The notes: generated from the letters alone by a model not told the origin. A stretch of DNA of 64,000 nt from an uncultured Chloroflexaceae bacterium (GCA_964526735.1 CAZGLO010000001.1:6214-70213); one strand, 5' to 3'. Counted from the stretch's first letter, positions 10,871 to 53,515 are shown. Numbers and translations are program-made.

Positions 10871-13057
10871 CTACACCAACTCAAGTCGTTGGTTCAGCTC
10901 TTCTAGGATGCGTTGCGCGGCGACGGGGATGACCGTGCCCGGGCCGAAGATAGCCGATGCGCCTTGCTCTCGCAGGAAATCGTAGTCTTGCGCCGGTATC
11001 CCCCCGCCGATCACGACTATGATATCCTCACGGCCAAGCGCCCGAAGCTCTTGCACCAACTGTGGCAAGAGGGTCTTGTGGCCTGCCGCCAGCGAACTCA
11101 TCCCAACCACGTGCACGTCATTCTCAACGGCTTGGCGGGCAGCCTCGGCTGGGGTCTGGAAGAGCGGCCCAATATCGACATCGAAGCCCATATCGGCAAA
11201 GGCGGTGGCAATGACCTTTGCGCCACGGTCGTGGCCATCTTGGCCCATCTTGGCGACCATGATACGGGGGCGACGGCCTTCGCGCTGCTCAAACTCATCT
11301 GCCATTGCGCGCACGCGGTCAATCGTCTGAATATCGGTGAACTCGCTGCTGTAGACGCCGGAAATCGACTGTATGACGGCTTGATGGCGGCCAAACACCT
11401 TCTCCATCGCAGCAGAAATTTCGCCCAAACTGGCCCGTGCCCGTGCCGCCTCAATCGACAGCTCAAGCAGGTTACCTTCGCCAGTCTCGGCGGCGTGTGT
11501 CAGAGCATTGAGTGCGGCCTCAACCTTGCTATCGTCGCGCTGCTCGCGCAGTTGTGCCAAACGACGCCGTTGGGCCTCAAGCACGGCGGTATTATCCACC
11601 TCAAGGATATCAAGCGGGTCTTCCTTATCGAGCCGGTAGCGGTTGACGCCCACCAACGTCTCCTTACCCGAGTCGATGTGCGCTTGACGGCGGGCGGATG
11701 CTTCCTCAATGCGCATCTTGGGTAAGCCCGTCTCAATCGCCTTCGTCATCCCGCCAAGCGACTGGACTTCCTGGATGTGGCTCCACGCACGGCGGGCGAG
11801 CATATCGGTCAGCGCCTCAACGTAGTAGGAGCCGCCCCACGGGTCAACCACACTGCAGATGTTCGTCTCATTTTGGAGCAGCAACTGCGTATTGCGGGCG
11901 ATGCGGGCGGAGAAGTCTGTTGGCAGGGCGATGGCCTCATCAAGGGCGTTGGTGTGCAGCGATTGCGTGTGGCCAAGAGCCGCCGCCATCGCCTCAACAC
12001 ACGTCCGTATGACGTTGTTGTAGGGGTCTTGCTCTTGGAGGCTCCAGCCCGATGTCTGCGAGTGGGTGCGCAACGACATAGAGCGCTCATTTTTGGGGTT
12101 GAACTGCTTCATGAGCTTGGCCCACAACAGCCGTGCGGCGCGCATCTTGGCCACTTCCATAAAGTAGTTCATCCCAATCGCCCAAAAGAACGACAGCCGC
12201 GGCGCAAAGCTATCAATATCCATCCCCGCCTTGAGGCCGGTCTGGACATATTCAAGGCCGTCGGCCAGGGTGTAGCCAAGCTCAAGGTCTGCCGTCGCGC
12301 CCGCCTCCTGCATATGGTAGCCGGAGATGCTGATGCTGTTGAAGCGCGGCATATGCTTGGAGGTGTAGGCAAAGATATCGGCAATGATGCGGATAGATGG
12401 CTCTGGCGGGTAGATGTAGGTGTTCCGCACCATATATTCTTTGAGGATGTCGTTTTGGATGGTGCCGGTCAGTTGCTTCTGATCAACGCCCTGCTCCTCC
12501 GCCGCGACGATGTAGAAGGCCATCACGGGCAAGACCGCGCCATTCATCGTCATAGAGACCGACATCTCATCCAGCGGGATGCCATCAAACAGGATCTTCA
12601 TATCGAGGATCGAGTCGACCGCCACGCCTGCCTTGCCCACATCGCCCAGCACGCGTTCGTGGTCGGAGTCATAGCCGCGGTGGGTGGCGAGGTCAAAGGC
12701 AATCGACAAGCCTTTCTGCCCCGCGGCGAGGTTGCGCCGGTAGAATGCATTGCTCTCTTCGGCGGTGGAAAAACCCGCATATTGCCGGATAGTCCACGGG
12801 CGAGAGACGTACATGGTGGGGTAGGGGCCGCGTAGGAAAGGCGCTATCCCCGATACAAAGCCCAAATGCTCAAGGTGTTGGGTTTCTTCTTTGGTGTAGA
12901 AGGGCCGCACGGCAATTTGCTCGACCGTCTGCCAGAGATAGTCGTCAAGCGAGCGACCAGTCTCGCGCTCGACCGCCACGCGCCATTCTTCATAGGAGAG
13001 TCGCGGCTGCTCAGCCGAAAACTCCATAGTAGTAAAATCTGGTGTTGTAGGAGTCAT
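10871..13057 (-). CDS. mutB: Methylmalonyl-CoA mutase large (alpha, catalytic, B12-binding) subunit
   Basis: 728-aa ORF. TIM-barrel region [10 protein letters not shown]-like ([23 protein letters not shown]) and C-terminal B12 domain with [13 protein letters not shown] (DxHxxG). Confidence 0.95.
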
Positions 13058-13063
13058 AGCGAA

Positions 13064-15214
13064 TTACACCCCTATCCGTTTCTGAAGGGTTGCCAAGGTT
13101 TCGTAACAATTGGAGCGCAGGTGGATATATTCATCCACGCCCGCCGCCTTATGCGCTTCGATTTGGTCTTTGGGATAGCCCGCCAGCACCACAATCGCAT
13201 CGGGGTTCTGCTGCTTGAGAGCCGCCACCAATGGGGGCACGACATCGGGGTAGGTCTCATCCGTCGAGCAGATAGTGACGACAGGTGCTCCTGAGCGCAC
13301 CGCCGCGTCTGCTGCCTCTTCCGCGGTGGCAAAGCCATCGTTGGTGAGGACAGTAAACCCGCCCACCTCAAAGAAGCCGGTTGAGAAGTCGGCGCGGGGT
13401 TTGTGCTGCGGGATAGGGCCAATATTGGCCAGGAAGACCGTCGGACGTTTGCCTGTCCGCGCCTGATACTCTTCAGACGCCGCCCGCAACTGCTCAAATG
13501 GCTCGGTGCCGCGACGTAGGGTGATTGGCTGCAGCGTGTGGAACGGCCCAAGATCACTCGTTCGTAGGGTGGCCTTCAGTTGCCCAAGTGTCGCTCCGGC
13601 AAGCGCGGCCTTGATCGCCACGCCGACCGGCTGTGCGCTCTGCTCGCCGCGGCATTGGGTCAGCTCATTGAGTGCGCTGGTGACAATGCGCTGGTCAACC
13701 GACGATTGTGCCACGGTAAACGCATTGATACGCTGCTCATAGCGGGAATGGGTGGCGTCGGCAATATCGGCGGCACGGGGTGGCTTGGGCCGATTTTCTT
13801 GGCCGTTGGCGTAGATGTTCGTGCCGATGAATTGGTCACGGCGGTGGGCGATGTTCATAGCGCGTTGCGCAGCCACGTCCGCAATCGACTGTTGGGGGTA
13901 TCCTTCCTCAAGCGCGGCCAACATCCCGCCCCGGCGCTCCACTTCCTGAAAGACTTCCCACGCCTTTTTGGCGATGGCGTCGGTGAGATATTCAACATAC
14001 CACGATCCGCCTGCCGGATCGACAATCTTGGTCAGATGGCACTCATCTTGCAGGATGATGTGCGTATTTCGCGCAATACGACGAGAAAAATCACTCGGCT
14101 CTTGGAATGTCTCATCAAAGCAGCCAACGTGCATGCTATTGCAGCCCCCCGCCACCGCGGCAAACGACTCGGTCGTGGTGCGCAACATGTTTACGTATGG
14201 GTCGTAGATCGTCTTGTTCCACTGCGAGGTGCGGGCGTGGATGACCATCTTCTGGGCCTCTGCATCGCCCCCAAACGCCTCTACCACCTTCGCCCATATC
14301 AGGCGGGCAGCCCGCAGCTTCGCCACCTCCATAAAGAAGTTCGATCCGATGGAGAAATAAAATCGCATGGAAGTTGCGGTATCATGGAGAGAGATGCCTC
14401 GCTCTTGCATCGCCCGGATGTATGCAACTCCCGTAGCGATGGCAAACCCAAGCTCTTGAACCGAACTCCCGCCGCCGTTGTGGTAGGGATGACCTTGGAC
14501 AGCGATGGTGTGCATATTGGGAGCATTCGCGCGCACCCACTGCGTGAGTTGAGCCATGCCGTCGTAGCTATCGCTGATGGGGTGGGCCAAATTGCCCGCC
14601 TCCGCCAATGTCCCAAGCGGGTCACAAGCGAAGCCCCCTCGCAGCGTAGATAGGTTCCCCTGCTGCTGATGGGCGTGGGCGAGGAAGAGGGCCGCAATAG
14701 GCAGGCTACATGCACCAACCTTGAACGTACACGGCACATCGGCGATGGAAATGCCCTCAAAGAGCTGTGCGACATCGCGCAGGGTCGAGATTGACACCCC
14801 ACCCTGCCCCATCGCATCCGGCTTGGCATCAACGACGTTCGTCCCCTGGCGAGTCGGAGCATCGCAAACCACCAATAGTGCCGTCTGCCCACGTTCAAGA
14901 TCAGCACGTGCAGCGCGGTTCCAGTCGGTGGGGATGGCATAGGGGATTTCTTGGCAGATATCCCAAGGTTGTTCACGATAGCCGAGCGGGTGAATGCCGC
15001 GAACGTAGGGAGGGAAGCCGGGGAGCGTTTGGCAGTGAGTAAGGTGTTCGATGTCTTCGCGGCGGTAGAGTGGTTGAATATCTATGGTCTCGTACGTCTT
15101 GCTGAGGAGCTTTTTCTCAAATGATGCTCCTTTGAGCGACTGCTCTGCAACATGACGCCATTCTTCGTAGGTCGGGTACGCAAATTCTGGAAATAACCGA
15201 TCCGTTTCTGGCAT
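13064..15214 (-). CDS. mutA: Methylmalonyl-CoA mutase small (beta) subunit
   Basis: Homologous in layout to the alpha subunit, but the C-terminal Rossmann domain lacks the DxHxxG His. Start re-picked at ATG 15214 (MPETDRLFPEF..., AAGGAG 6 nt upstream); the 54 upstream codons of the maximal ORF look non-coding. Confidence 0.85.
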   Translation of the reverse strand: MPETDRLFPEFAYPTYEEWRHVAEQSLKGASFEKKLLSKTYETIDIQPLYRREDIEHLTHCQTLPGFPPYVRGIHPLGYREQPWDICQEIPYAIPTDWNRAARADLERGQTALLVVCDAPTRQGTNVVDAKPDAMGQGGVSISTLRDVAQLFEGISIADVPCTFKVGACSLPIAALFLAHAHQQQGNLSTLRGGFACDPLGTLAEAGNLAHPISDSYDGMAQLTQWVRANAPNMHTIAVQGHPYHNGGGSSVQELGFAIATGVAYIRAMQERGISLHDTATSMRFYFSIGSNFFMEVAKLRAARLIWAKVVEAFGGDAEAQKMVIHARTSQWNKTIYDPYVNMLRTTTESFAAVAGGCNSMHVGCFDETFQEPSDFSRRIARNTHIILQDECHLTKIVDPAGGSWYVEYLTDAIAKKAWEVFQEVERRGGMLAALEEGYPQQSIADVAAQRAMNIAHRRDQFIGTNIYANGQENRPKPPRAADIADATHSRYEQRINAFTVAQSSVDQRIVTSALNELTQCRGEQSAQPVGVAIKAALAGATLGQLKATLRTSDLGPFHTLQPITLRRGTEPFEQLRAASEEYQARTGKRPTVFLANIGPIPQHKPRADFSTGFFEVGGFTVLTNDGFATAEEAADAAVRSGAPVVTICSTDETYPDVVPPLVAALKQQNPDAIVVLAGYPKDQIEAHKAAGVDEYIHLRSNCYETLATLQKRIGV

Positions 15215-15366
15215 AAAAAACTCCTTTGTTTTAGCTGTACCGTGGAAGGATAATAGCATACCCACTATCGCAGTGCAAGGAATCAGGCAGAAGCCCGCAG
15301 AAACCCGCAGAAGCCCATGGTACAATTGGAAGACGCCAACTAGGCAATGCGATAGTGTTGGAAACC

Positions 15367-16812
15367 ATGACCACATCTACCCTCATCGAAGTAGACATTG
15401 ATGGAATAGCGCAGGGTGGTGATGGAGTAGGGCGATATGAAGGGCGCGTCGTCTTTGCGACCGGGGCACTCCCCGGCGAGCGTGTTCGCGTCCGCTTAGA
15501 GTCCGAAAAGCCATCCTACCTACGAGGGAGCGCGGTGGAGATACTCCATCCCGCCCCCGAACGCGTCTCACCCACGTTCCCATCAGCAAGCCATATGAGT
15601 TGGCAGCATATTCGCTATGATGCCCAGCTCCGGTTCAAGCATGCGATTGTCCGCGATCAGCTGCACAAGTTTCTCCGACCAGTGGTAGGAGGAGGCGAAG
15701 CGGCCAAAGTAGCCGACTCGGCCCCAGAAGCAAAGAACGCTGTGCAGCACCATCCGCTCGATCAGCTTGATATCCGCGACCCAATTCCCGCCCATTCTCC
15801 GTGGGGCTATCGAAACACGATCCACTTGCGTCACGACCCGCAAACCGGGTATATTGGCTATTACGCGGTGCAATCTCGGCGTGTGGTTGATCTCCCCTTC
15901 GATCCGCTTGCCCTTCCGGCTATCAATGAAGCACTGGCTGGATTGCGTACGGTGCTTTCGTCTCAATCGCCCAATGATTGTTCTCTGACGCATATCACCA
16001 TACGAGCCAGTGCGACCTACGGCTACGTCATTGGTTCGCTCAGCGGTGCCAACCTCGCAGATGTGCGCTCTATAGCACACCAGTGGCGTGCACATTGCCC
16101 GGCTCTTGCCGGGTGTATGGTGACGGAAGAGAGCGAGAGCGGTGGCGAGGTGGGCGGGGAGAGCAGAAAGAGGAAAGGGATCAGGGAGAGCATGACAACT
16201 GATGAAAACAGCGTTTTGCTCCACGAACAGCTAGAGGAGGTAACATTTTCTATTTCGCCAGAGAGCTTTTTTCAAGTACACACCGCGCAGGCCGAGAGCA
16301 TGCTACAGGTAGTTCGTTCGTTGTTGGCGTTGCACCCTCACGAGCGGCTCCTCGATCTCTACAGCGGGGTGGGGACGTTTGCCCTCCCGTTGGCACGTGA
16401 CGTGGCAGAAGTTGTCGCCGTCGAATCGCATCCGCGCGCGGTGGAAGATGGCCGTCGAAGCCAAACACTCAACGCCATTCCCAATGTCACCTTTCACCAC
16501 GCCCCGGCTGAGCAGGCAATGTCTTTCCTGGCAAAGGAGAGGCACACGCCCCCCTCCTATGCGGCTGCCATCCTTGACCCACCCCGACGTGGATGTCATC
16601 CAGCAGTCTTGCAGACAATGATCGAGCTGGCTGTGCCTCGGTTGCTCTATATTTCGTGTCATCCGGGGGTGCTTGCCCGCGATCTCGACATCCTCTGCGC
16701 TGGAGGGTATCGCCCCGTCACTATTCAACCAATCGATATGTTCCCGCAGACTCCCCATATTGAGTCTGTGGTACTGTTGTGCCGATACAAATTGGTCGCC
16801 ATTCCCATGTAG
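15367..16812 (+). CDS. TRAM-domain 23S rRNA (uracil-C5)-methyltransferase, RumA/RlmD family
   Basis: N-terminal TRAM-like GIAQGGDGVGRYEGRVVFATGALPGERVRVRL. SAM motif LLDLYSGVGTFALPLA, ILDPPRRGC and a C-terminal YISCHP nucleophile motif. Start is ATG 15367 or GTG 15355. Confidence 0.85.
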   Translation: MTTSTLIEVDIDGIAQGGDGVGRYEGRVVFATGALPGERVRVRLESEKPSYLRGSAVEILHPAPERVSPTFPSASHMSWQHIRYDAQLRFKHAIVRDQLHKFLRPVVGGGEAAKVADSAPEAKNAVQHHPLDQLDIRDPIPAHSPWGYRNTIHLRHDPQTGYIGYYAVQSRRVVDLPFDPLALPAINEALAGLRTVLSSQSPNDCSLTHITIRASATYGYVIGSLSGANLADVRSIAHQWRAHCPALAGCMVTEESESGGEVGGESRKRKGIRESMTTDENSVLLHEQLEEVTFSISPESFFQVHTAQAESMLQVVRSLLALHPHERLLDLYSGVGTFALPLARDVAEVVAVESHPRAVEDGRRSQTLNAIPNVTFHHAPAEQAMSFLAKERHTPPSYAAAILDPPRRGCHPAVLQTMIELAVPRLLYISCHPGVLARDLDILCAGGYRPVTIQPIDMFPQTPHIESVVLLCRYKLVAIPM

Positions 16813-16820
16813 GATGTGCT

Positions 16821-18356
16821 ATGAGGGCTGTTAATACGATACTCATCGTTGATGATGACAGAGGAACACGGGAGATCCTCCGGATATTGTTGCAATCGCC
16901 ACACTATCACCTCTCCTTCGCCAAAGATGGAGACGAAGCCCTAACCCTTGCCACACGCATCGTTCCCGATCTTATCTTATTAGATGTAATGATGCCTGGC
17001 ATGAGTGGGTTTGAGGTGTGTAGCAAGATACGAGCGACCCCGCTCCTCTCCGAAGTGCCGATTTTACTTATCACGGCGCTCAACGACTCCAATTCGCGTC
17101 TTCGCGGGCTGGAGCTTGGGGCCGACGATTTCATCACCAAACCGTTTGATTATGCCGAACTCCAAGCGCGAGTTCACACGATAACCAAACTCAACCGCTA
17201 CCGCCGATTGCTGACCCAACGCATTTGGTTTGAGTGGGTCGTCGATCAGTCAAATGATGGCTTTGTGATTGTTGATTGTCACGGGCACATTCTCTATCTC
17301 AATCGAAAGGCCCGTATCTACCTCAATATTTCGGCATGCAGTGGAGATCCCCCCATCTTGCCGCAGAACGAAACCTTTTTGCAAATTGCCCGACGATATT
17401 ATCATTGTGAGACAAAGGAGGCATGGGAAACATGGCACCATGATCTGAATGCAGAGACCGATTCATCCCCCTGCATCTCATCCACATCGCTTCCACGCTA
17501 TTTGGTTCGCCCTGAAACCAAACGCACACGTGAGCTATGGCTGCGGGTCGACCAGCTTGATATTCCCATGGGATCCCATGTAGAGCGGCTCATTCGGCTC
17601 AATGATGTCACCGAACAGATGACGAAAGAGCGTACCATCCGAACATTTCAGAAGCTCATCTCACACAAGCTCCGTTCTCCATTGGGGGCGCTGACCAATA
17701 GCATTCATCTGCTCACAGAGAACCGTGAACAACTCACCCCTGAGATGGCAAGAGAGTTTATTGAGATCGCCTCGCAAAGCATTGAACGATTGCGGTGTCA
17801 GGTAGATGATGTCTTGCTCTACCTCAAAACGCCCGACCTCGTGCAGCGCGAGCAGGGGTGTGAGCTTTCAGTCGTGAAGAAGCTGGTCACACAGATTTGC
17901 GAGGAATTGGAGGTCGTATCGTTAACAATCTTGTGCCCGGATGAACTCAACGGCTGTCGTTTGTATCTCTCGCAACAAGCGATCGAGCTGCTTCTCCGCG
18001 AAGTTATCGAAAATACCCGCAAGTTTCACCCGACTCAGTCGCCCTGTGTCGAAGTGTGTATCTCATGCCCCGAACAAGCCAAAGTCTCGTTGGTGGTGCG
18101 AGATGACGGGACAAGCCTCACACCGGAACAGATCACCGAAGCGTGGGTGCCCTACTATCAGGCAGAAAAGTACTTTAGTGGAGAAGTGCCGGGGATGGGG
18201 CTTGGGCTTGCGATGGTCGCGATGGTCTTGTGGAGTGTTGGAGGGTGTTATCATATCGCCAACCGCTACCCCGGCCCCGGAGTCGAGGTAGAACTCGTGG
18301 TGCCGCTAAAGCAGGAAGAACCCGATCAGAAACCCATTGTACTAAAGGCCGATTGA
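16821..18356 (+). CDS. Response-regulator receiver fused to a histidine kinase (REC-sensor-HisKA-HATPase)
   Basis: ILIVDDDRGTREIL..DLILLDVMMPGMSGFEV receiver, H-box ISHKLRSPLGAL, G-box GMGLGLAMV. ATG at 16821 follows the rumA stop. Confidence 0.85.
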   Translation: MRAVNTILIVDDDRGTREILRILLQSPHYHLSFAKDGDEALTLATRIVPDLILLDVMMPGMSGFEVCSKIRATPLLSEVPILLITALNDSNSRLRGLELGADDFITKPFDYAELQARVHTITKLNRYRRLLTQRIWFEWVVDQSNDGFVIVDCHGHILYLNRKARIYLNISACSGDPPILPQNETFLQIARRYYHCETKEAWETWHHDLNAETDSSPCISSTSLPRYLVRPETKRTRELWLRVDQLDIPMGSHVERLIRLNDVTEQMTKERTIRTFQKLISHKLRSPLGALTNSIHLLTENREQLTPEMAREFIEIASQSIERLRCQVDDVLLYLKTPDLVQREQGCELSVVKKLVTQICEELEVVSLTILCPDELNGCRLYLSQQAIELLLREVIENTRKFHPTQSPCVEVCISCPEQAKVSLVVRDDGTSLTPEQITEAWVPYYQAEKYFSGEVPGMGLGLAMVAMVLWSVGGCYHIANRYPGPGVEVELVVPLKQEEPDQKPIVLKAD

Positions 18357-18359
18357 GCT

Positions 18360-19730
18360 ATGCACCAAAAAAATACTATTCTCATCGTGGATGATGAACG
18401 ACTGGGACGTGCCACCTTGGAAGCACTTCTTCGCCATCCTCACTATCAACTCTTGTTTGCAAGCAATGGGAGTGAAGCATTGGAGCAGGCCCATATCGTC
18501 CCTCCTGATCTCATCCTGCTCGACGTGATGATGCCAGACATCGACGGATTCGAGGTGTGCCGCCGTATCCGTTCCGACACGTTGTTGAGCGAAGTGCCCA
18601 TTATTATGGTCACCGGCCTTGACGACCGCGAATCGCGCATTCAAGGCATTGAGTCGGGCGCAGATGACTTCATCTCCAAGCCGTTTGACCACACCGAGCT
18701 GCAAGCGCGGGTGCGGACAATCACCCGTCTCAACCGCTACCGGCGGCTGTTAGAAGAACGGAACAAGTTTGAACGAGTTGTATCGCTCTCTCCCGATGGC
18801 TTGATGGTCATCTCATCAACGGGGGAGATTTTGCTCGCCAACCCTGCCGTTATCCGGTTGCTCTATGGCGAGGAGGAGGAAGAAACCCCCCTTGTTGGAA
18901 ACACGATTAGGGTATTTGTACCCGAAGAGCATGTCGACCATTGTCTGGCGCGCCTCAACGCGATTGGCACGGGAAAGATCGCCATGGTGCGCTTTGAGAC
19001 GGAGATGATGCGCAGCGATGGCACGCGGTTTTCGGCAGAAATCACCAGCGGGCATATTGTGTGGGATGCCACTCCGGCTGCACAGGTCAATGTCCGCGAT
19101 GTGACCGAGCGGAAACGGGCAGAAAAAGAGATCCGGCGCTCCAAAAATGAGCTGGCACTGGCCTACGATGCGACGTTGGTGGGGTGGGTCAAGGCGCTTG
19201 ACCTCCGCGACCGCGAAACCGAAGGCCATTCGCAGCGCGTGGCAGAGATGTGCGTGCGGCTTGCCCAAGCAGTCGGCTATGAGGGTGAGGATATTGAGAC
19301 GATCCGCCGCGGTGCGCTGCTGCACGACATCGGCAAGATGGGCATTCCCGATCACATCCTCTTTAAGCCCGGCCCGCTCACCGATGAAGAGTGGTCGTTG
19401 ATGCGCAAACACCCGGAGTATGCCTACGAGTGGCTTGCACCCATCGAATACCTCCGCCCGTCGCTTGATATTCCCTATAGCCACCACGAAAAGTGGGACG
19501 GGACAGGGTATCCACGCGGCCTGAAAGGCGAAGATATCCCACTCCCTGCCCGCATCTTCGCCATCGTCGATGTGTGGGATGCACTACGCTCCAAACGCCC
19601 CTACCGCGAAGTGTGGCCGGAGGAGAAAGTATGCAACTATATCCGTTCGCTCTCTGGGAAACAGTTTGATCCGATGGTCGTGGAGGTGTTCCTTGCCAAC
19701 TACCACAACTTGACGAACGTCTCATTTTGA
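18360..19730 (+). CDS. Response regulator with PAS and HD-GYP (c-di-GMP phosphodiesterase-type) output domain
   Basis: Receiver ILIVDDERLGR..DLILLDVMMPDIDGFEV. HD-GYP signatures: HSQRVAEM, LLHDIGKMGIPD, HHEKWDGTGYPRGL. ATG lies 4 nt after the upstream stop. Confidence 0.9.
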   Translation: MHQKNTILIVDDERLGRATLEALLRHPHYQLLFASNGSEALEQAHIVPPDLILLDVMMPDIDGFEVCRRIRSDTLLSEVPIIMVTGLDDRESRIQGIESGADDFISKPFDHTELQARVRTITRLNRYRRLLEERNKFERVVSLSPDGLMVISSTGEILLANPAVIRLLYGEEEEETPLVGNTIRVFVPEEHVDHCLARLNAIGTGKIAMVRFETEMMRSDGTRFSAEITSGHIVWDATPAAQVNVRDVTERKRAEKEIRRSKNELALAYDATLVGWVKALDLRDRETEGHSQRVAEMCVRLAQAVGYEGEDIETIRRGALLHDIGKMGIPDHILFKPGPLTDEEWSLMRKHPEYAYEWLAPIEYLRPSLDIPYSHHEKWDGTGYPRGLKGEDIPLPARIFAIVDVWDALRSKRPYREVWPEEKVCNYIRSLSGKQFDPMVVEVFLANYHNLTNVSF

Positions 19731-40928: not shown

Positions 40929-42563
40929 TCATCTTTCAACAAGCTTCGTTATGAGCCGTCGGAAAGGCAAACGGCTCTCAATCAGCCGCCGTCGGTCATC
41001 GGCCTCCAGCCCGCCCAACTGCCGCAGCAAGACGCCGAAGCTGATCGCCCCCGCCGTCGTGATGACCAACACCAGTCCGGCAGCGATCAACCGCTCCCCA
41101 ATGCTCTCTCCGACCGTGTCTATCCCAAATGCATATTTCAGTCCCATCACCACGACGATCATCCCCAAGGCAGCAAGCGTCACCCGCCCAAAGAAGCGCC
41201 ACGAATAGCGCAGGGGGAAGAGCCGGTGTGCCAGCAAAAGCGTGACCAAGCCGGTCACCACCCGTCCGCCACCGACCGCCAATGCCGCACCAATCAGCCC
41301 ATACTGCGAGGCAGCCCATACCATAATCGGCACAATCAGCAGGGTGAGGGTGCGGGGGAGGATGAGGAACGTGTATCGCTCGTAGACTTGCAGGACGATT
41401 TGGGCGCTGCTCAGGAACGACTCGATGAAGAGGCACGGGGTTAGCACATAGACGACCATCGCCGCGTTGGCATATTGGGGGTATTGCACCAAGATAATCT
41501 CGTGGGCAAGCAGCATCAACCCCACCCCGCCCGGCACCAATATCAGGAAGAGGATGCGCCCTATCGCGGCATAGGCCTCTTCAAGCGTCCCATCGCCGCC
41601 GCGCACCCGCGTAAAGAGTGGCACCTGTATGCCGACAAGCGGCGTGTAGAGCAATGCCAACGCTTGCCGTACCATCGCGGTGCCGGTGGTATAGAGCGCC
41701 ACTTGCGCCAGATCTCCCAGCAGGAAAACCGCAAAATACCAACTAATCAGGTAGTCGCTGATGTTGAGGACGTTTGACATACCTGTGTAGAGCGTAAACC
41801 GCTTCCAGAAGGGCTGAGTAGGTAGGGTATCTGGTTTGCGAACAGGTGGGGGCGAGGGCGGGGAACGGTGGCCTTGGAGCACTTGCCACCCCGCCAACAC
41901 CACACTGAGTACCGGCGTGATGACCATCGCCGCAAGCACCCCGCCAATCCCCTTGCCAAGCAACACAAGGATAGAGGCAAGCAGCGGCTGCAAGACGCTC
42001 CCCAACAGCCCAATGAGGTTCCAGGCGCGCTGGCGGAAATAGCTGATGAGGTAGGCCATCAAGCCGTCGTAGAAGCTGCCCAAGATGACCAATGCAATCA
42101 CCACGGCAATCAGCCACGGCGTAAGTTGCACCACATCCTGCTCCAACGCCGCCCGCACGCTATCGAACCGTTCGGGGAGTTGGTGCACGCGCTCAATGAG
42201 ATAGCCCGTGAAGCGGTGGGAAAAGAGGAGGAACAGCACCGTAAAGCCAACAAGCAATGCCCCCTTCACAAGGAAAATTGCCGTCATAAAACGCCCGACG
42301 TGTGCCCGCCCTTGCTGTTGCTCTAGCTCTGGGATGAAGCGCGGGAGCGCGCGGTCAATGCCAAAATCCACCCAAATGCCCAAACTCGCCGCCGCAGAGC
42401 TGACAAGCCGCAAAAGCCCGACGTGGGGAAGGGGGAGGATGTTGAGGATAATGATGTTGGAAACAAGCTCTGTGATGGTCTTGAGCGGGGCGAGTAGGGT
42501 GTTCCACGCGACCGCACGCGATACTTGTTGGGCAAGCCCAGAAGGCCGAGTTGGTGTTGTCAT
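40929..42563 (-). CDS. MOP-superfamily polysaccharide flippase (Wzx-like)
   Basis: 544-aa ORF with about 14 TM segments and an N-terminal AWNTLLAPLKTITELVSNIIILNIL. Architecture typical of polysaccharide biosynthesis / oligosaccharide flippase proteins. Confidence 0.75.
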   Translation of the reverse strand: MTTPTRPSGLAQQVSRAVAWNTLLAPLKTITELVSNIIILNILPLPHVGLLRLVSSAAASLGIWVDFGIDRALPRFIPELEQQQGRAHVGRFMTAIFLVKGALLVGFTVLFLLFSHRFTGYLIERVHQLPERFDSVRAALEQDVVQLTPWLIAVVIALVILGSFYDGLMAYLISYFRQRAWNLIGLLGSVLQPLLASILVLLGKGIGGVLAAMVITPVLSVVLAGWQVLQGHRSPPSPPPVRKPDTLPTQPFWKRFTLYTGMSNVLNISDYLISWYFAVFLLGDLAQVALYTTGTAMVRQALALLYTPLVGIQVPLFTRVRGGDGTLEEAYAAIGRILFLILVPGGVGLMLLAHEIILVQYPQYANAAMVVYVLTPCLFIESFLSSAQIVLQVYERYTFLILPRTLTLLIVPIMVWAASQYGLIGAALAVGGGRVVTGLVTLLLAHRLFPLRYSWRFFGRVTLAALGMIVVVMGLKYAFGIDTVGESIGERLIAAGLVLVITTAGAISFGVLLRQLGGLEADDRRRLIESRLPFRRLITKLVER

Positions 42564-42613
42564 ATGAGTGGTATGGATGGTATGAATGATACGAATGGCA
42601 CGAAATACGTGCT

Positions 42614-42651
42614 ATGGAGCGATGTTGTATATGGAGCGATGTTGTATATGG
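42614..42651. repeat. 17-bp direct repeat ATGGAGCGATGTTGTAT x2.2 upstream of the flippase gene
   Basis: Read directly. Adjacent 9-bp periodic TGGTATGGA-like units at 42569-42595. Confidence 0.85.
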
Positions 42652-42732: not shown

Positions 42733-44895
42733 CTAGTCAGAAACGTCCTGGCACCGCTCTAGCACGCGCACCAACTGCTCTATGTGCATCGGCTTGCTGA
42801 TATAGTCATCCATACCGGCGTTGAGGAGCCGTTCGCGGTCTCCCTGAAGCGAATGGGCGGTCATGGCGATGATGCGCGGTTGCTTATGGCGGGAAATTTG
42901 TTGGCGGATGATGCCCGTCGCTTCGATTCCGTCCATATCGGGCATCTGCACATCCATAAAGACGACGTTGTAGCGGAGCCGTTTGACCATATCAATCGCC
43001 TCAATGCCATTTGCGGCCAGATCCGCACGATACCCCATCCGATCCAGCAGCCGGGTGATCACTTTTTGGTTCACGGCATTGTCCTCAGCCACCAAAATGC
43101 GGAGCGGGATGGTTGTCGCGAGGTTCGGAATCTCCCGCCGTCCCTGGAAAGGACGCCCACGGCTGGTCTGCATCCCAGAACTCGTCTCTTGCTCCTTGGC
43201 GCAAACCGAAAGCAAACTTTGATAGAATGAGGCGAGTTTGACGGGCTTGATCAGGAAAATCACGTTCGGATCATCATAGGCTTCCGAATATTCGCGCGCC
43301 AGCCGGATCGGTATCCAGAGGATGAGCGGCGTGTCGTCGGAGGAGGTGCGGAGGGCGTGGATCATCGTCGGCTCATCATCTGCCAGCGGGTCGTTCATAT
43401 CGACCACAATCACGTCAAACGTTTCCCCCGACTCAAGCCGCCCAATGGCCTCTGCCTCGCTGGAGACAAGCGATAGCTGCATCCCCCACCATGTCAGGTG
43501 CTGCAGAAAGAACTCTTGCTGTGTTTTGTTGTTTTCAATGAGAAGCACCCGCTTTTTGGCCAATTCTGGCTGGTCACTTTTGAGGAAGTCGGGGAAATGC
43601 GGGGTTTGTTGGTCTTCCTCTACCTCGATAATGATATGGAAGCACGACCCCTGCCCCATCTCGCTCTCCACCCATATCGTCCCGCCCATCATCTCGGCAA
43701 GCCGCTTGCTGATGGCCAAACCAAGCCCTGTCCCGCCATATTTGCGCGTAGTCGATGCATCAACCTGCGTGAATGACCGAAAGAGGAGCCGGAGACGTTC
43801 GGCCGGAATGCCAATGCCGGTATCACGCACCGTGATCGAGATTTCGTAGCGCGGCGCGGGGGCGGTGTTGATAGGCAGCAAGTAATGCGATTCGGGGAGG
43901 ATGTCGAAATCGCGGTCGCGGATGCGCTTCACCCGCGACGAGACCGTCACCACCACCTCACCCTGATCGGTAAACTTGACGGCGTTGCTGAGCAGGTTGA
44001 CGATGATCTGCCGCAGCCGTGTCACATCGCCAAGCAATGAGGTTGGGGTGTGTTCGTCTATGATGTAGGACACATTGATCCGCTTCTCCGATGCTTTGTA
44101 GGCCACCAAATCCAGTGCTTCCTCAATGCAGTAGCGCAGATCGAAGGCATGGTGCTCTAATTCTAGCATCCCCGCCTCGATCTTGGAGAAATCAAGGATA
44201 TCGTTGATGATAGAGAGCAGAATTTCGCTACTTGCCCGCGTCGATTCGGCATAGTCATACTGCTCAGCATTGAGGTGGGTGTGCAGCAGGAGGTTTGTGA
44301 AGCCCAAAATCGCATTGAGCGGTGTGCGGATTTCGTGGCTCATATTGGCCAAAAACTCCGACTTGGCCCGCGTGGCGAGTTCTGCCTGCTCCCACGCCTT
44401 CTGGAGTTCTTCGTTCTTGCGAGAGAGGATATGCTGCGTTTTGTAGAGCTGGCGCGTGGTGGTGGAAAGCTCGTTGGTCAGCCGAAGATACTCTTGAGCG
44501 GCTTTTTCGTCAAGGGCAGGGATCGGCTCAGCAAAGAGGAGGATGTTGTGTTCTGCGGTGGGGGTGAGGTAGCACTCATATGTGGTTGGGAGATCTTGCT
44601 CGTTAACTGCAAAGTGGACATTGGCGTGTACAATGCGCTGTTCTTGTAGTGAAACATCCATCATCTCCCGAAACCGCACGACGCTGGTGCTCACCAACAG
44701 CTCTTTGATGTTGGTGGCGGTGGGGAGCTGGTTTTTTAGCCGGTCAATACTCGCATTCCATTCAAGGAGATTCCCCTGAGAGTCGAGGAGCGCGAATAAA
44801 CTTTTGCTATAGCGCAACAACACCCCCCTCCCATGACTGGCTATGGCTTTTACAAGCTCTGAATGAGCTTCGTCTGTATGATCCAAGTGTTCCAA
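42733..44895 (-). CDS. Hybrid sensor histidine kinase with two C-terminal receiver domains
   Basis: H-box FLANMSHEIRTPLNAILGF, G-boxes DTGIGIP and GGTGLGLAISKRL. Second receiver ILVAEDNAVNQKV..VFMDVQMPDMDG. TTG start with GGAGGTG RBS, 18 nt after the upstream stop. Confidence 0.9.
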   Translation of the reverse strand: MEHLDHTDEAHSELVKAIASHGRGVLLRYSKSLFALLDSQGNLLEWNASIDRLKNQLPTATNIKELLVSTSVVRFREMMDVSLQEQRIVHANVHFAVNEQDLPTTYECYLTPTAEHNILLFAEPIPALDEKAAQEYLRLTNELSTTTRQLYKTQHILSRKNEELQKAWEQAELATRAKSEFLANMSHEIRTPLNAILGFTNLLLHTHLNAEQYDYAESTRASSEILLSIINDILDFSKIEAGMLELEHHAFDLRYCIEEALDLVAYKASEKRINVSYIIDEHTPTSLLGDVTRLRQIIVNLLSNAVKFTDQGEVVVTVSSRVKRIRDRDFDILPESHYLLPINTAPAPRYEISITVRDTGIGIPAERLRLLFRSFTQVDASTTRKYGGTGLGLAISKRLAEMMGGTIWVESEMGQGSCFHIIIEVEEDQQTPHFPDFLKSDQPELAKKRVLLIENNKTQQEFFLQHLTWWGMQLSLVSSEAEAIGRLESGETFDVIVVDMNDPLADDEPTMIHALRTSSDDTPLILWIPIRLAREYSEAYDDPNVIFLIKPVKLASFYQSLLSVCAKEQETSSGMQTSRGRPFQGRREIPNLATTIPLRILVAEDNAVNQKVITRLLDRMGYRADLAANGIEAIDMVKRLRYNVVFMDVQMPDMDGIEATGIIRQQISRHKQPRIIAMTAHSLQGDRERLLNAGMDDYISKPMHIEQLVRVLERCQDVSD

Positions 44896-44913
44896 CAGTC
44901 ACCTCCCAAATGA

Positions 44914-46032
44914 CTATGGGGTGGCGGTTGTCTGCAGGTAGTGGATGAGCATGCTTGCACTTTGGAAGAACCTATCTGCCCCAACAGCCTTCCACGATGT
45001 GGGGTCTCCCACATAGGCTTGCCCCCCAACGATAACATGGACTGAAAAATCGGGCATAGACCGTACCTCGCGCACCATCGCCGCAACATCTTCTAGATGA
45101 GACACCATGGTGGTGGAAATACAGAGAAATTGCGCGTGGTGCTCGCGCAGGAGTTCTAGGATACCATCTACCGGCGTGTTTGCACCAGTAAAGTACACAT
45201 CCCAACCGTGGATTTCTAGCATATCGGCCAAAATACGGGCACCTATCTCGTGGAATTCATTGGGAGAAGAGGAAACGACAATCGTCCCGTGCTGCCGCGG
45301 AATTTCCAAGATCTTGGGGTAGTGCAGCGAGATGACGCGCTGAGTGATAGACGTGGCAACATGCTCTTGCCCGACCGTGATTTCGCCTTCGGCCCACAGC
45401 CGCCCTACTTCATACAGGGCGGGCGTAATGATGTGTTCCCACCATTCTGGGATATCCCACACCGTCTTGATGTATGCCTGTGATACCTCTACCGCTTTTT
45501 GGGTATTGGGTTCGAGGATGGCATCGAGGTAGGAACGAAAATAGCTCGTCAACGATTCCTCCTCCTCACTACTCGACATGGTTTCTGGTATGCACGAGAG
45601 GACAAAAAATTCAGGATGATGATCGATGAGGGTTTGGTAGAGCGTGAGAAGAGGGTGGTTCGGATCGAGGTGGATGGCGATGGCCCGTTTCCACGTTTCA
45701 AATTCAATAGGGAAGTAGATAGGTGAAAACCCTCGCCCGAACAATGTGGTGTACATCTGGATCATCCCCTGCACCAACGTTGAGCCATCTTGCGTTCTCA
45801 TATGTGTGAGCATAAACTCGCTGTGCGACCAATGATGATGAATCAGCAAGCTCCTCTCGTCGGGGCCAATCAAATATTGAAGATCCTCCCGCTTCTCAAT
45901 CTCGCGCGCGACCGATTGGATCAGTTGGGGAAGTCGTTCTTCATAGTCGCGTATCGCATTGGCGTCAATGCCTGCGAGGATCATAGAACAAAATGTGGAT
46001 ACGTGGTGCACCACTGGCTCACCTTGGCTCAT
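44914..46032 (-). CDS. Cobalamin-binding protein with CarH-type B12-binding_2 plus B12-binding domains and an unassigned N-terminal domain
   Basis: LWAEGEITVGQEH (W-x9-EH) and NEFHEIG ((D/E)xHxxG) are followed by a Rossmann-like ..VYFTGANTP..FLCISTTM..VIVGG. The start is uncertain: the maximal ORF reaches 46224 (GTG), with ATGs at 46134, 46032 and 45984. I chose 46032 because a plus-strand promoter-like TGGTATAAT sits at 46181. Confidence 0.75.
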   Translation of the reverse strand: MSQGEPVVHHVSTFCSMILAGIDANAIRDYEERLPQLIQSVAREIEKREDLQYLIGPDERSLLIHHHWSHSEFMLTHMRTQDGSTLVQGMIQMYTTLFGRGFSPIYFPIEFETWKRAIAIHLDPNHPLLTLYQTLIDHHPEFFVLSCIPETMSSSEEEESLTSYFRSYLDAILEPNTQKAVEVSQAYIKTVWDIPEWWEHIITPALYEVGRLWAEGEITVGQEHVATSITQRVISLHYPKILEIPRQHGTIVVSSSPNEFHEIGARILADMLEIHGWDVYFTGANTPVDGILELLREHHAQFLCISTTMVSHLEDVAAMVREVRSMPDFSVHVIVGGQAYVGDPTSWKAVGADRFFQSASMLIHYLQTTATP

Positions 46033-46180
46033 ACATCGTCTGGTTGAGTATCTCCGATCCTGCACAACACCATGCTTCTCTTTGGAGGAGGTGTGGATGA
46101 GAGATGTTCCGTGTGCCCATTCCCATGGTACCATTTTTTGGAGAGGGGAGAAGACTTTTCGGAAAGCGTGAATGCTACTG

Positions 46181-46189
46181 TGGTATAAT
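46181..46189 (+). promoter_or_regulatory. Candidate extended -10 (TGGTATAAT) for the VanW/GT-C operon
   Basis: Read directly; about 95 nt upstream of the ATG at 46284. Confidence 0.4.
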
Positions 46190-46283
46190 GCGGCGGCACG
46201 ATGCTGTTTTTGTAAAGATACCACAACCTGTTCAACGCAGTCTACCGCACATACCCTGACATATCCAAAACCCTATTATTCAT

Positions 46284-47690
46284 ATGAGGAACCTTATGCG
46301 TCATACCCGCATACTCGTTGTCATTTTCTCTCTTGTAAGTTTGCTCATCTCTACGGCTACATTTGCCCCACGCGCCGTTGCTGCCCCAACGGTTGCCCAA
46401 GAAGGCGAGTTGTTTGCCTACTTCCCGGAGACGGGCCACAATATCAGCTTTGAAATCAAAGATTTTTTTGATGCCAAGGGCGGCGTGGAGGTCTTTGGGC
46501 TGCCCGTCACCGAAGTCATCTCCGATAGCCTCACCGGCGAAACCCTCAACGTCCAATATTTCCAGCGGGCGCGGTTTGAGATCCGCCCCGACCGCCCAAA
46601 GGGAGAACGTATCACGCTCACCCGCCTCGGCTCTTTTTTGACCCATGGGCGGCGGGAAGCAGCATTTCAACGAGTTACCCATTCTCCCGACCCCAACCGC
46701 GACTTCTACCCTGAGACGGGGCATACCTTGGGCGGGGTGTTTCGCGATGTGTGGAGCCAATACGAGAGCTTGACCGTCTTTGGCTACCCCATTTCCGAAG
46801 AATTTCAGGAATATAACCCCGTCGACGGCAAATATTACACCGTCCAATACTTTGAGCGGGCGCGGTTTGAACACCACCCAGAGCATCAAGGCACACCCTA
46901 CGAAGTACAGCTTGGCCATCTTGGCTATGAGCTGCTTGCCTACCACCCGCGGGCGTTGGAAGTCAACCAGCCTGCAGAGCCTATCAAGCTGCTTGGAGAG
47001 GCCAAAACCAGCTATGCCGCCTCTATTGAGGAGCGCATCCACAATATTGGCCAAGCAACGGCTATGTTTAATGGCATGATGATCCCGCGAGGCACCGAAT
47101 TCTCGTTCAATGCGAGTGGTGAGTTTGATGAGGAGCACGGCTTTGTCGATGGCTATGCGATTATCGGTGACCGGCTTGAGCGGGTGGTGGCAGGGGGGCT
47201 GTGCCAAGTCTCCACGACGATGTTCCGCGCGGTGTCAAATGCCGGTCTGCAAATCACCGAGCGCCACGGTCATACCTTCATCGTCAACTTCTACGAGAAT
47301 ATTCTTGGCTTTGATGCGACAGTCTACGATCCGTACGTTGATTTTAAGTGGTACAACGACACCCCCGGGCCGGTCTACATCTCCACCGCGTCCAATGTCA
47401 ACGATGCGACGGTGACGTTCTGGATATGGGGCTATGATGATGGCCGGACGGTCAGCTACGAAGGCCCATATACCGAAAATTGGCAGCAACCCGGCCCCGC
47501 CATCTGGGAGTATGACCCCGATCTGCCGTATGGGGCGGTGCGTCAATTGGTGCATGGCCGCTCTGGCGTCGATGTGACATACATCCGCACGGTGACGATG
47601 CCGAACGGAACGGTATTACACCGCGATACATTCTTTACCCAGTATGAGCCGTGGGCCGACTTCTATATCTACGGCCCCGGTGCACGATAA
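46284..47690 (+). CDS. VanW-family protein with signal peptide and two N-terminal FxETGH...YF(Q/E)RARFE repeats
   Basis: Signal-like ILVVIFSLVSLLISTATFAPRAVAA. VanW core EFSFNASGEFDEEHGFVDGYAI..GGLCQVSTTMFRAV.NAGL.I.ERH.H. Confidence 0.85.
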   Translation: MRNLMRHTRILVVIFSLVSLLISTATFAPRAVAAPTVAQEGELFAYFPETGHNISFEIKDFFDAKGGVEVFGLPVTEVISDSLTGETLNVQYFQRARFEIRPDRPKGERITLTRLGSFLTHGRREAAFQRVTHSPDPNRDFYPETGHTLGGVFRDVWSQYESLTVFGYPISEEFQEYNPVDGKYYTVQYFERARFEHHPEHQGTPYEVQLGHLGYELLAYHPRALEVNQPAEPIKLLGEAKTSYAASIEERIHNIGQATAMFNGMMIPRGTEFSFNASGEFDEEHGFVDGYAIIGDRLERVVAGGLCQVSTTMFRAVSNAGLQITERHGHTFIVNFYENILGFDATVYDPYVDFKWYNDTPGPVYISTASNVNDATVTFWIWGYDDGRTVSYEGPYTENWQQPGPAIWEYDPDLPYGAVRQLVHGRSGVDVTYIRTVTMPNGTVLHRDTFFTQYEPWADFYIYGPGAR

Positions 47691-52420: not shown

Positions 52421-53515
52421 ATGGAAGACCAAGACCTTCAGCAAGAATTGACGGGCATACGCGGGCAATATCAACAAGAATACGAGAAGCTTGAGCGCGA
52501 GATCAAAGAGAGTGAGATCAATGCGCAGCAGCTTTCAACCGATATCGAGAAACTCGGCCAACGAGAGGCCAAAGTCTCTGGGCGTGTTCACGACTTTGAG
52601 ACCAACCTCGACCGCTACGAAAAGGCCGATGTCAAGAATATTTACTCATCACTGCTTGATATGCGTGTCCGGTTGCAGATGATGCGCGCCAATCTTGAGC
52701 AGTCAAAACTCAAACAAGAGAGCATGCGAGAACGTAGGGAACTCGTTGGCGATTTTGTTGAGATTCTTGACCAGTTGCTTGAGCTAGGCATTAGCGGCAG
52801 CGGGAATGGTAAGGGCGGGGGGGAGGAAATTAATGAACATGACCTCGTCACAAATATTATTCAGGCGCAGGAAGAGGAAAAAGAACGCATTGCCCTCCAA
52901 ATGCACGACGGCCCTGCTCAGTCGATGAGTAACTTGGTATTGCGTGCAGAAATCTGCCACCGTTTGCTCAACCACAACGCTGATCAAGCCAGCTCTGAGC
53001 TGACGAGCCTCAAAACGGCCATCAACAGCTCGTTGCAAGATATCCGCAAATTTATCTTTGATCTGCGGCCCATGACGCTCGATGACTTGGGGCTTGTCCC
53101 CACCATTCGGCGGTTTGCGTCGGAATTTGGCGAGAGCTACAACATCGAAATCAATGTCATGGAGAATGGGTTGAATGATCGGCTTGCGCGCCACTATGAA
53201 ATCACGCTTTTCCGGTTCATTCAAGAAGCACTCAACAATATTCAGAAGCATTCGCGGGCCAAGAAGGCTCGGGTCGTGCTTACCGCCTCCGAAGGGCAGC
53301 TGCAGATTATTATTGAGGACGAGGGCGAGGGGTTTGATATCAATATCCTCTCCGACAACGCCCACAACCGCCGTAATAAAGGCATCCCCAGTATGAAGCA
53401 GCATATTGAGATGTTGTTGCACGGCGAGCTTGGCATCCAGAGCACGCCCGGCCAAGGAACACGTGTCGTGGCGAATGTCCCCATTCAGTATGATGTTCCC
53501 AACGGGGAAGGGTAA
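52421..53515 (+). CDS. Cytoplasmic HisKA_3-type (DegS/NarX-like) sensor histidine kinase with N-terminal coiled coil
   Basis: H-box RIALQMHDGPAQSMSNL, HATPase GEGF, and GIPSM..L.G.L.I.S.PG.GT. No TM segments and no adjacent LuxR-type regulator. Confidence 0.85.
   Translation: MEDQDLQQELTGIRGQYQQEYEKLEREIKESEINAQQLSTDIEKLGQREAKVSGRVHDFETNLDRYEKADVKNIYSSLLDMRVRLQMMRANLEQSKLKQESMRERRELVGDFVEILDQLLELGISGSGNGKGGGEEINEHDLVTNIIQAQEEEKERIALQMHDGPAQSMSNLVLRAEICHRLLNHNADQASSELTSLKTAINSSLQDIRKFIFDLRPMTLDDLGLVPTIRRFASEFGESYNIEINVMENGLNDRLARHYEITLFRFIQEALNNIQKHSRAKKARVVLTASEGQLQIIIEDEGEGFDINILSDNAHNRRNKGIPSMKQHIEMLLHGELGIQSTPGQGTRVVANVPIQYDVPNGEG

Follow-up and report, generated by a model that had tools for sequence, protein, structure and literature searches.

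A 64,000-nucleotide (nt) stretch of DNA from an uncultured Chloroflexaceae bacterium (GCA_964526735.1 CAZGLO010000001.1:6214-70213), referred to as a whole as the window, encodes on its minus strand a small stand-alone protein in which a globin-fold domain is joined to a CarH-type cobalamin (B12) module, followed directly by the gene for a hybrid histidine kinase that begins with a PAS domain. Relatives of this protein, hereafter the sensor, occur in several phyla, mostly next to a gene carrying the same PAS domain, whatever output domain is attached to it. The reading favoured here, probable though far from assured, is that the sensor is a photocobilin-type protein that uses adenosylcobalamin (AdoCbl) and signals to the PAS domain of the downstream kinase. 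An original prediction, made from the sequence of the window alone, had proposed a CarH-type cobalamin module acting on the neighbouring kinase through protein contact; the two open reading frames (ORFs) on which it was built, 44914..46224 for the sensor and 42733..44895 for the kinase, were checked in the ORF list and stand at the coordinates first given. All features of the pair described below lie on the minus strand.

The C-terminal half of the sensor carries the two cobalamin domains originally read there, and Pfam recognises both of them: a B12-binding_2 four-helix bundle at 45328..45537 (E 2.3e-14, ORF amino acids (aa) 230-299) and a Rossmann-type B12-binding domain at 44971..45285 (E 2.3e-19, ORF aa 314-418). 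The bundle contains GRLW...QEH and with it the W-x9-EH motif (LWAEGEITVGQEH, nt 45399..45361), while the Rossmann domain contains the lower-axial histidine loop NEFHEIG (nt 45261..45241) and GANTP. A protein search over 5.8 billion sequences returned 51 relatives of the sensor, chiefly from metagenome-assembled genomes (MAGs) of Chloroflexales, and 40 of these were aligned. Both motifs lie where the prediction had placed them and are kept by the orthologs, with W197, E207 and H208 of W-x9-EH as well as H245 and G248 of the axial loop invariant in 40/40 homologs, which marks a family-wide constraint and no chance motif. The signature of light-responsive cobalamin-binding domains (CBDs) consists of GxxW, EH, GxxH, and GxxxP (PMC11796333); the window sensor has GRLW, QEH, and GANTP, with NEFH at the place of GxxH, a position whose first residue is Gly in 23/40 and Asn in 7/40 of the homologs.

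Searched against the PDB, the profile of the whole family finds the photocobilin SasPcob best (8J2X/8J2W, 1e-40), followed by AbPcob (8J2Y, 4.5e-34), the light-sensing CBD of CtMerR (8JBS, 2e-28), and, further down, corrinoid proteins and CarH (1e-16). The AlphaFold2 (AF2) model of the full-length sensor has a predicted local distance difference test score (pLDDT) of 92.7 and a predicted template-modelling score (pTM) of 0.86, and its top Foldseek matches are all light-sensing cobalamin domains, with a template-modelling (TM) score of about 0.8 to the B12 domain of CarH. Only the B12 half of the photocobilins is aligned in this comparison because their domain order is permuted. The best NCBIfam model is likewise CarH, confined to the B12 part (60 bits against a cut-off of 400, profile positions 89-261). 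These matches to photocobilins and CarH bear out the assignment to the light-sensor type of cobalamin module, and the sensor would be expected to bind cobalamin. With CarH/LitR (5C8A/5C8D) it shares the bundle and Rossmann domain, the W-x9-EH cap over the adenosyl group, and the His-on loop E/DxHxxG. It differs from these regulators in lacking the MerR helix-turn-helix (HTH), since Pfam finds no HTH or MerR DNA-binding domain in the sensor, as had been expected, and in having a kinase rather than DNA binding as its output. The residue after the Trp is Ala in the window, whereas in TtCarH this residue is His132, which reportedly forms a bis-His light adduct.

The same matches bear on a different identity for the sensor, that of a methyl-carrier corrinoid protein belonging to a methyltransferase system. 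Several homologs are labelled automatically by JGI as 'methanogenic corrinoid protein MtbC1', TIGR02370 is matched with 48 bits, and the structures 4JGI, 1Y80, and 7XCN are found at E 1e-19 to 1e-23. However, the cut-off of TIGR02370 is 215 bits and the MtbC model reaches 35 of the 350 bits required, the PDB matches lie far below those to photocobilins, W-x9-EH is invariant in the family, the N-terminus is a globin domain, and no methyltransferase gene is conserved in 80 related loci, where the sole conserved neighbour is the PAS-effector, making a methyl carrier an extremely improbable description of the protein. The window also encodes both subunits of a B12-dependent methylmalonyl-CoA mutase (10871-15376), so that the organism has another cobalamin-dependent enzyme. 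The first of these two subunit genes, 10871..13057, comprises MM_CoA_mutase and B12-binding with no B12-binding_2 bundle, which is the contrast with the sensor that had been drawn initially.

The N-terminal region of the sensor had been left unassigned and put at 150-220 aa; the region is there, but it measures about 140 aa and is a globin according to structure prediction, structural comparison, and profile alignment. The domain extends over 45592..45984 (aa 1-131 counted from M81). The AF2 model of the N-terminal 140 aa alone has a pLDDT of 93.6, and its top 50 Foldseek matches in the PDB are all globins or phycobiliproteins at TM 0.40-0.67, mostly 0.5-0.67, including neuroglobin, flavohemoglobin globin domains, phycobilisome subunits, and smURFP. 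In sequence searches, the N-terminal profile matches globins, allophycocyanin, and the C-terminal domain of SasPcob, and the PDB search with the whole family gives a weak second match of this region to the biliverdin-binding C-terminal globin of SasPcob. For a direct comparison, SasPcob (P0198) and actinobacterial photocobilins were retrieved by the 197-aa B12 part and 20 canonical C-terminal biliverdin domains were excised; hhalign aligns the N-terminal profile with these over 92 columns (probability 91.3%, E 9.3e-7). The sensor N-terminus is thus a globin fold homologous to the photoglobin domain, and the architecture is globin-first and stand-alone. A heme-globin identity is disfavoured, as the F-like helix (model residues 67-83) has no conserved His at the positions tabulated.

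Domains of this kind are already known. Photoglobins were defined in 2021 by Schneider et al. as domains fused to B12-binding_2 and B12-binding in either order, in operons rich in PAS, histidine kinase, receiver, GGDEF, and SpoIIE genes, and with Chloroflexi members in the alignment (PMC8717448). Zhang et al. reported in 2024 the structures of SasPcob and AbPcob and their binding of AdoCbl and biliverdin (PMC10979010; 8J2W/8J2X/8J2Y), showed that light activates a diguanylate cyclase fused to a photocobilin, and found that this cyclase also responds in trans, depending on light, to photocobilins that stand alone, whose role they called "less clear" (PMC10979010). Both the stand-alone combination of globin and B12 module and its action by protein contact are therefore published, and the window sensor is not a new kind of module. 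Like the photoglobins, it has a globin-fold domain coupled to B12-binding_2 and B12-binding; with the photocobilins, it shares the AdoCbl module of CarH type, marked by W-x(9-10)-EH and E/DxH, and the attached globin resembling phycobiliproteins, and photocobilins that stand alone likewise act in trans on an enzyme, through protein contact. In contrast to the photocobilins, the order is reversed, the globin being N-terminal in a group that PMC10979010 knows from predicted structures only, and the partner is a dedicated PAS-hybrid kinase.

That partner has the HisKA domain with H-box, the HATPase_c domain, and the C-terminal receiver typical of hybrid histidine kinases. The core lies at 43621..44367 and consists of HisKA (aa 177-242, H-box SHEIRTP, Pfam 7.9e-22) and HATPase_c with an insertion (aa 289-425, Pfam 7.4e-29). 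Two receivers had been predicted, and both are present, though not of equal quality, Pfam seeing one Response_reg only and a local profile recovering the other, weaker one. Receiver 2 (aa 600-712, 42760..43098, Pfam Response_reg E 5e-33) has the complete catalytic set in the alignment (E-D, D, T, and K) and is presumed to be the phospho-acceptor. Receiver 1 (aa 447-562, 43210..43557, local profile iE 3.7e-20) is degenerate when aligned with CheY and orthologs: the equivalents of Asp57 and Lys109 are kept, E-N replaces the D-D pair, and there is no Ser/Thr at T87. Four orthologs retain DD, D, S, and K in the same alignment with CheY, and receiver 1 is probably a pseudo-receiver in the lineage of the window.

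The kinase N-terminus, too, had been left without an assignment and can now be placed among the PAS domains. The segment in question, aa 1-165 (44401..44895), comprises a divergent PAS domain and a signalling helix (..AQEYLRLTNELSTTTRQL..). Its family profile matches the PAS domains of phytochrome A (3e-6) and PpsR (8.7e-6, second-best), and further ThkA and PYP in the PDB, and Pfam PAS_8, PAS_4, and PAS_9 match 16, 13, and 9 of 28 members of the partner-domain family, the window kinase N-terminus on its own lying below the Pfam PAS threshold. Judged by these family matches, aa 1 to about 125 are a divergent PAS domain. It ends in a strongly conserved helix, ..NNELxxxTRELxKKN.., in which the Arg is invariant. 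The six closest kinase-paired homologs of the sensor (L001, L002, L004-L007) are 46-52% identical to it, and their kinase cores are 58-64% identical to that of the window; four of the kinase genes have the PAS-HK-REC-REC layout of the window, that of L005 has PAS-HK-REC, and that of L001 was recognised by tblastn only. Because the orthologs L004 and L006 extend into an added C-terminal Hpt domain, the output of the hybrid-kinase version would be a multistep phosphorelay.

Support for a functional connection between the two proteins comes from the survey of gene neighbourhoods. Scanning one genome per GTDB species gave 373 sensor relatives, of which 80 loci were kept; these span Chloroflexaceae, Oscillochloris, Chloroploca, Kouleothrix, Armatimonadota, Syntrophales, Syntrophomonadaceae, Desulfuromonadales, Halanaerobiaceae, Nitrospiraceae, Campylobacterota, and others. 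The kinase core and receivers recur by tblastn solely beside the closest sensors, and the first 165 aa recur after the sensor in most loci. According to jackhmmer, the partner PAS domain adjoins the sensor gene in 64/80 loci, and tblastn adds L001 and L021 to give 66/80, so that the survey proposed at the outset for cobalamin-domain and kinase genes returned a pairing with one and the same PAS domain. In 62 of the 64 jackhmmer loci the partner immediately follows the sensor gene in the same orientation; in L078 it precedes the sensor gene, and in L064 it lies two genes after it. Its output is GGDEF in 36 of the 64, kinase in 8, hybrid kinase in 5, and SpoIIE in 2, with none recognisable in the remaining 13. 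Junctions between sensor and partner are tight, with frequent overlaps of 4-25 nt, and when genes within about 5 kb are clustered, two families only are common across the loci, the sensor (75) and the PAS-effector (60). Pairwise distances of sensor and PAS domain are correlated (r = 0.92; 0/2000 permutations as high). Two metagenomic proteins, P0044 (628 aa) and P0045 (606 aa), are single-chain B12_2-B12-PAS-GGDEF fusions without the globin domain, whose B12 and PAS parts fall in the families of the window sensor and its partner. The conserved unit is sensor plus PAS-effector with exchangeable outputs, and its conservation supports signalling by protein contact; as the sensor gene travels with the PAS domain whatever the output, the latter is the likely docking site of the sensor.

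The two genes could also be mere neighbours, with the sensor acting on some other target and the kinase sensing through its own PAS domain. PAS domains often bind ligands of their own, and about 10 sensors have no adjacent PAS partner; about four of the contigs outside the 66 loci with the partner end too soon for the neighbour to be judged. However, adjacency is kept across several phyla despite the output swaps, the natural fusions P0044 and P0045 put both parts on one chain, and the genes overlap or, in the window, are only 18 nt apart, which leaves chance proximity very unlikely. Five orphan sensor genes (L003, L008, L014, L023, and L065) have no adjoining PAS partner; the MAGs that carry L003 and L008 each have a further sensor copy (L002 and L005) that is paired, and the genes downstream of the orphans are unrelated, encoding an Ig-like protein, UvrD, DUF3352, and EcsC. 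Locus L029, considered as a further sensor-PAS-GGDEF fusion, was rejected, as six-frame inspection places the two genes in different frames. The 13 short partners (L036, L038, L041, L042, L047, L062, L066, L071, L079, and others) measure 205-270 aa, with PAS and signalling helix followed by about 60 aa of tail; Pfam gave 0 matches on three short partners (L036, L066, and L025).

The subfamily so delimited is large, with 1,116 clusters at 50% identity for E up to 1e-3 and 483 for E up to 1e-10. The best 150 matches of an exhaustive profile search have one architecture throughout and include no bridge to the canonical photocobilins, this bridge being made by hhalign. A B12-first photocobilin of Saccharothrix coeruleofusca (L083, 4448-7940) lies between the genes for a 518-aa SpoIIE phosphatase and those for a STAS protein and an anti-sigma kinase, with start/stop overlap of the photocobilin and SpoIIE genes. 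The profile of the window-family PAS partner has no match in the SpoIIE protein beside this photocobilin, and for this reason the partner PAS domain appears specific to the subfamily with the N-terminal globin. PMC8717448, in the sections consulted, reports PAS domains in photoglobin operons generally, but no single PAS domain that stays with the sensor through changes of output.

Taken as a photocobilin-type system, the pair would work as follows. The globin-fold domain would be packed onto the CarH-type module, that is, the W-x9-EH bundle and the Rossmann domain with its His-on loop, and in the dark the sensor would have AdoCbl bound. Light would cleave the Co-C bond and thereby alter the conformation or oligomeric state of the sensor, as in CarH and the photocobilins. 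The change would be read through direct contact with the N-terminal PAS domain of a cytoplasmic kinase, arranged as PAS, signalling helix, HisKA, HATPase, degenerate receiver, and canonical receiver; the helix would relay it and alter autophosphorylation, and the phosphoryl group would pass to receiver 2 and then, via an Hpt protein and a response regulator encoded elsewhere, to the output. Cobalamin binding, light as the signal, physical contact between the proteins, and the sign of the regulation are each points that we infer. As for contact, the original proposal finds its support in comparative evidence, namely adjacency in 66/80 loci, co-divergence, tight or overlapping genes, and the two B12-PAS-GGDEF fusions.

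Known systems provide parallels to this scheme. The action of AerR/PpaA on CrtJ/PpsR follows the same logic, a CarH-like B12 protein free of DNA-binding domains binding a PAS-containing partner, but AerR is a distant relative (7TE2, E 4.7e-8) without a globin domain and acts on a transcription factor instead of a kinase. Bacteriophytochrome and Cph1 kinases likewise couple tetrapyrrole-based light input to a histidine-kinase phosphorelay; they do so in one polypeptide with the bilin in a GAF domain, whereas the window sensor is a separate B12/globin protein.

Several observations speak against the photocobilin-type reading, among them those on the globin pocket. In the chain numbering of 8J2W, which equals the paper numbering minus 6 (paper Trp61 = chain 55), ungapped phmmer and hhalign agree in placing SasPcob Asp270 at family position 50 and Trp296 at position 76. 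Position 50 is Asn in 21, Asp in 6, and His in 2 of 40 homologs, and His50 in the window; position 76 is Trp in 37/40, with Gln76 in the window and its 91%-identical relative. In the window pocket, His and Gln thus stand in place of the Asp and Trp with which SasPcob contacts biliverdin. The CXQD motif of photoglobins (PMC10151467) corresponds to M-x-x-N in the family and to L-I-H-H in the window, its conserved Asp (D49) being mostly Asn in the subfamily and His in the window, and position 47 is Met, Leu, Ile, or Val in 36/40, with Cys only in the distant member P0051 and none in the main group. AbPcob, too, has His at the Asp position, with weakened biliverdin binding (PMC10979010). Since the equivalents of Asp270 and Trp296 are His and Gln, bilin binding by the window sensor is doubtful, and the protein may be a B12-only sensor or hold another ligand in its globin pocket. 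Also to be set against a photocobilin-type signalling pair are the change from G to Asn that turns GxxH into NxxH in the window sensor, the ten or so sensors without an adjacent PAS partner, and the confounding of the co-divergence by the co-inheritance of adjacent genes. Within the window, neither a gene for an Hpt protein nor a cognate response regulator was identified. Many hosts, moreover, live in sediments and digesters as obligate anaerobes (such as Syntrophales, Syntrophomonadaceae, Smithella, and Desulfuromonadales), for which reason a light function is less obvious.

Some of these observations would be explained if the same PAS-kinase received an input other than light, such as the availability or form of cobalamin, redox state or oxygen via the corrinoid, or a globin ligand (bilin or heme), the CarH-type motifs being kept for cofactor binding and not for photochemistry. 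The family is common in obligate anaerobes of dark habitats, the globin pocket is non-canonical, with the subfamily-specific residues His54 (38/40) and His123 (36/40) that set it apart from photoglobins, and AerR is a detectable relative. AerR-type B12 proteins respond to cobalamin form and redox. On the other hand, all elements that mark light-responsive CBDs are conserved in the family, demonstrated photoreceptors are, by a margin of about 20 orders of magnitude, the nearest relatives of solved structure, and the nearest relatives of the sensor come from Chloroflexaceae, Oscillochloris, and Chloroploca, groups that include phototrophs. A non-light input is accordingly considered unlikely, and light sensed through AdoCbl is retained as the preferred input.

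The layout of the locus is that of a two-gene unit. The mechanical sensor ORF (to 46224, 436 aa) is about 70 codons too long compared with its homologs, which are mostly 360-390 aa. The 91%-identical relative P0002 is called from MVHHVSTF, corresponding to GTG 46014 in the window, and AAGGTGAG sits 7 nt upstream of this codon as read from the sequence. Homolog N-termini and the gene call of the 91%-identical relative make GTG 46014 the most likely start, with ATG 46032 and ATG 45984 as alternatives, so that the sensor gene, encoding photoglobin and CarH-type B12 domains, would occupy 44914..46014 (about 366 aa). The extra N-terminal stretch of the ORF (46015-46224, VSLQKQHRAAALYH...) has no counterpart in any relative. 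As originally read, an intergenic spacer of 18 nt (44896..44913) separates the sensor stop codon (TAG, 44916-44914) from the kinase, and it holds a Shine-Dalgarno sequence, GGGAGG, 6 nt before the TTG start at 44895; the kinase gene is probably co-translated with the sensor gene. An Rfam scan of the whole window gave 0 matches to a cobalamin riboswitch or other RNA, and promoter and terminator scans around the pair gave a site count not above that of shuffled sequence. The 91% relative comes from an ENA metagenome contig of 106 kb whose genes are arranged as in the window (VanW, sensor, kinase, Polysacc_synt_3, PMT_2, and so on). In the set with one genome per GTDB species the nearest relative of the sensor reaches 52% identity only, and the lineage of the window seems to be absent from that set.

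This gene order raises the question of whether sensor and kinase act as a light- or B12-operated switch reserved for the envelope-glycan genes around them, as had been suggested. The pair heads a long co-directional minus-strand run (Polysacc_synt_3-like, PMT_2, DUF2079, and glycosyltransferases), no terminator-like site is predicted in the 170-nt gap after the kinase, and this gap contains a perfect 17-bp tandem repeat. However, the synteny is confined to the 91%-identical relative, tblastn with the flippase and PMT_2 proteins gives 0 matches in any of the 80 loci, even where the hybrid kinase is present, no further gene family accompanies the pair across the loci, and neither the Hpt nor the response regulator that a hybrid kinase requires was found in the window. 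Adjacency within one shallow lineage does not speak for regulation; control of the glycan locus is not supported, and a dedicated switch is quite improbable. The 17-bp direct repeat (TATGGAGCGATGTTGTA, 2.3 copies) lies at 42613-42651, between the kinase stop and the flippase-like gene, and a 9-bp array (TATGAATGG x4) at 42563-42598 abuts the start of the latter; either could be a regulator binding site. On the other side of the pair, a VanW-domain protein (46284..47690) is transcribed divergently from the sensor. VanW-like regions matching aa 31-258 of the window protein at 33-38% identity lie within a few kb of three orthologous pairs (L002 5399-5929; L004 11343-11927; L006 4547-5092).

Other signalling genes of the window lie apart from the pair. 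A REC-HisKA-HATPase protein of 525 aa (16779..18356, plus strand) and a REC-PAS-HD_5 protein of 456 aa (18360..19730, plus strand), the latter presumably an HD-GYP-type c-di-GMP phosphodiesterase judging from its HD_5 family, follow one another, and no link of either to the sensor pair was found. Nothing ties the HisKA_3 kinase at 52421..53515 to the sensor pair.

What appears new is a large subfamily with a non-canonical pocket and one specific PAS domain with interchangeable outputs, an association not stated in the main text of the photoglobin and photocobilin papers, figures and supplements aside. A broader interpretation, tentative and of rather low probability, is that of a widespread 'split' sensory system, comprising at least 483 clusters, with a stand-alone B12/globin protein that docks on its own PAS domain, with exchangeable outputs, and maybe with a non-light input or a different globin ligand; these outputs may be cyclic di-GMP (c-di-GMP) synthesis, phosphatase, kinase, and phosphorelay. 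The non-canonical pocket (M-x-x-N-H...His54) and the abundance of strict anaerobes hint at more than green-light sensing by AdoCbl.

B12 photoreception beyond CarH is a young field in which two photocobilins have been characterised. The annotation of the family, whose members are now mislabelled 'methanogenic corrinoid protein MtbC1' or plainly 'cobalamin-dependent protein', could be corrected. Sensor with PAS-GGDEF, or sensor with PAS-kinase, would be minimal pairs for biochemistry and optogenetic design. For one large subfamily, the window locus and its 80 relatives give a concrete and testable answer on the role of stand-alone sensors of this type.

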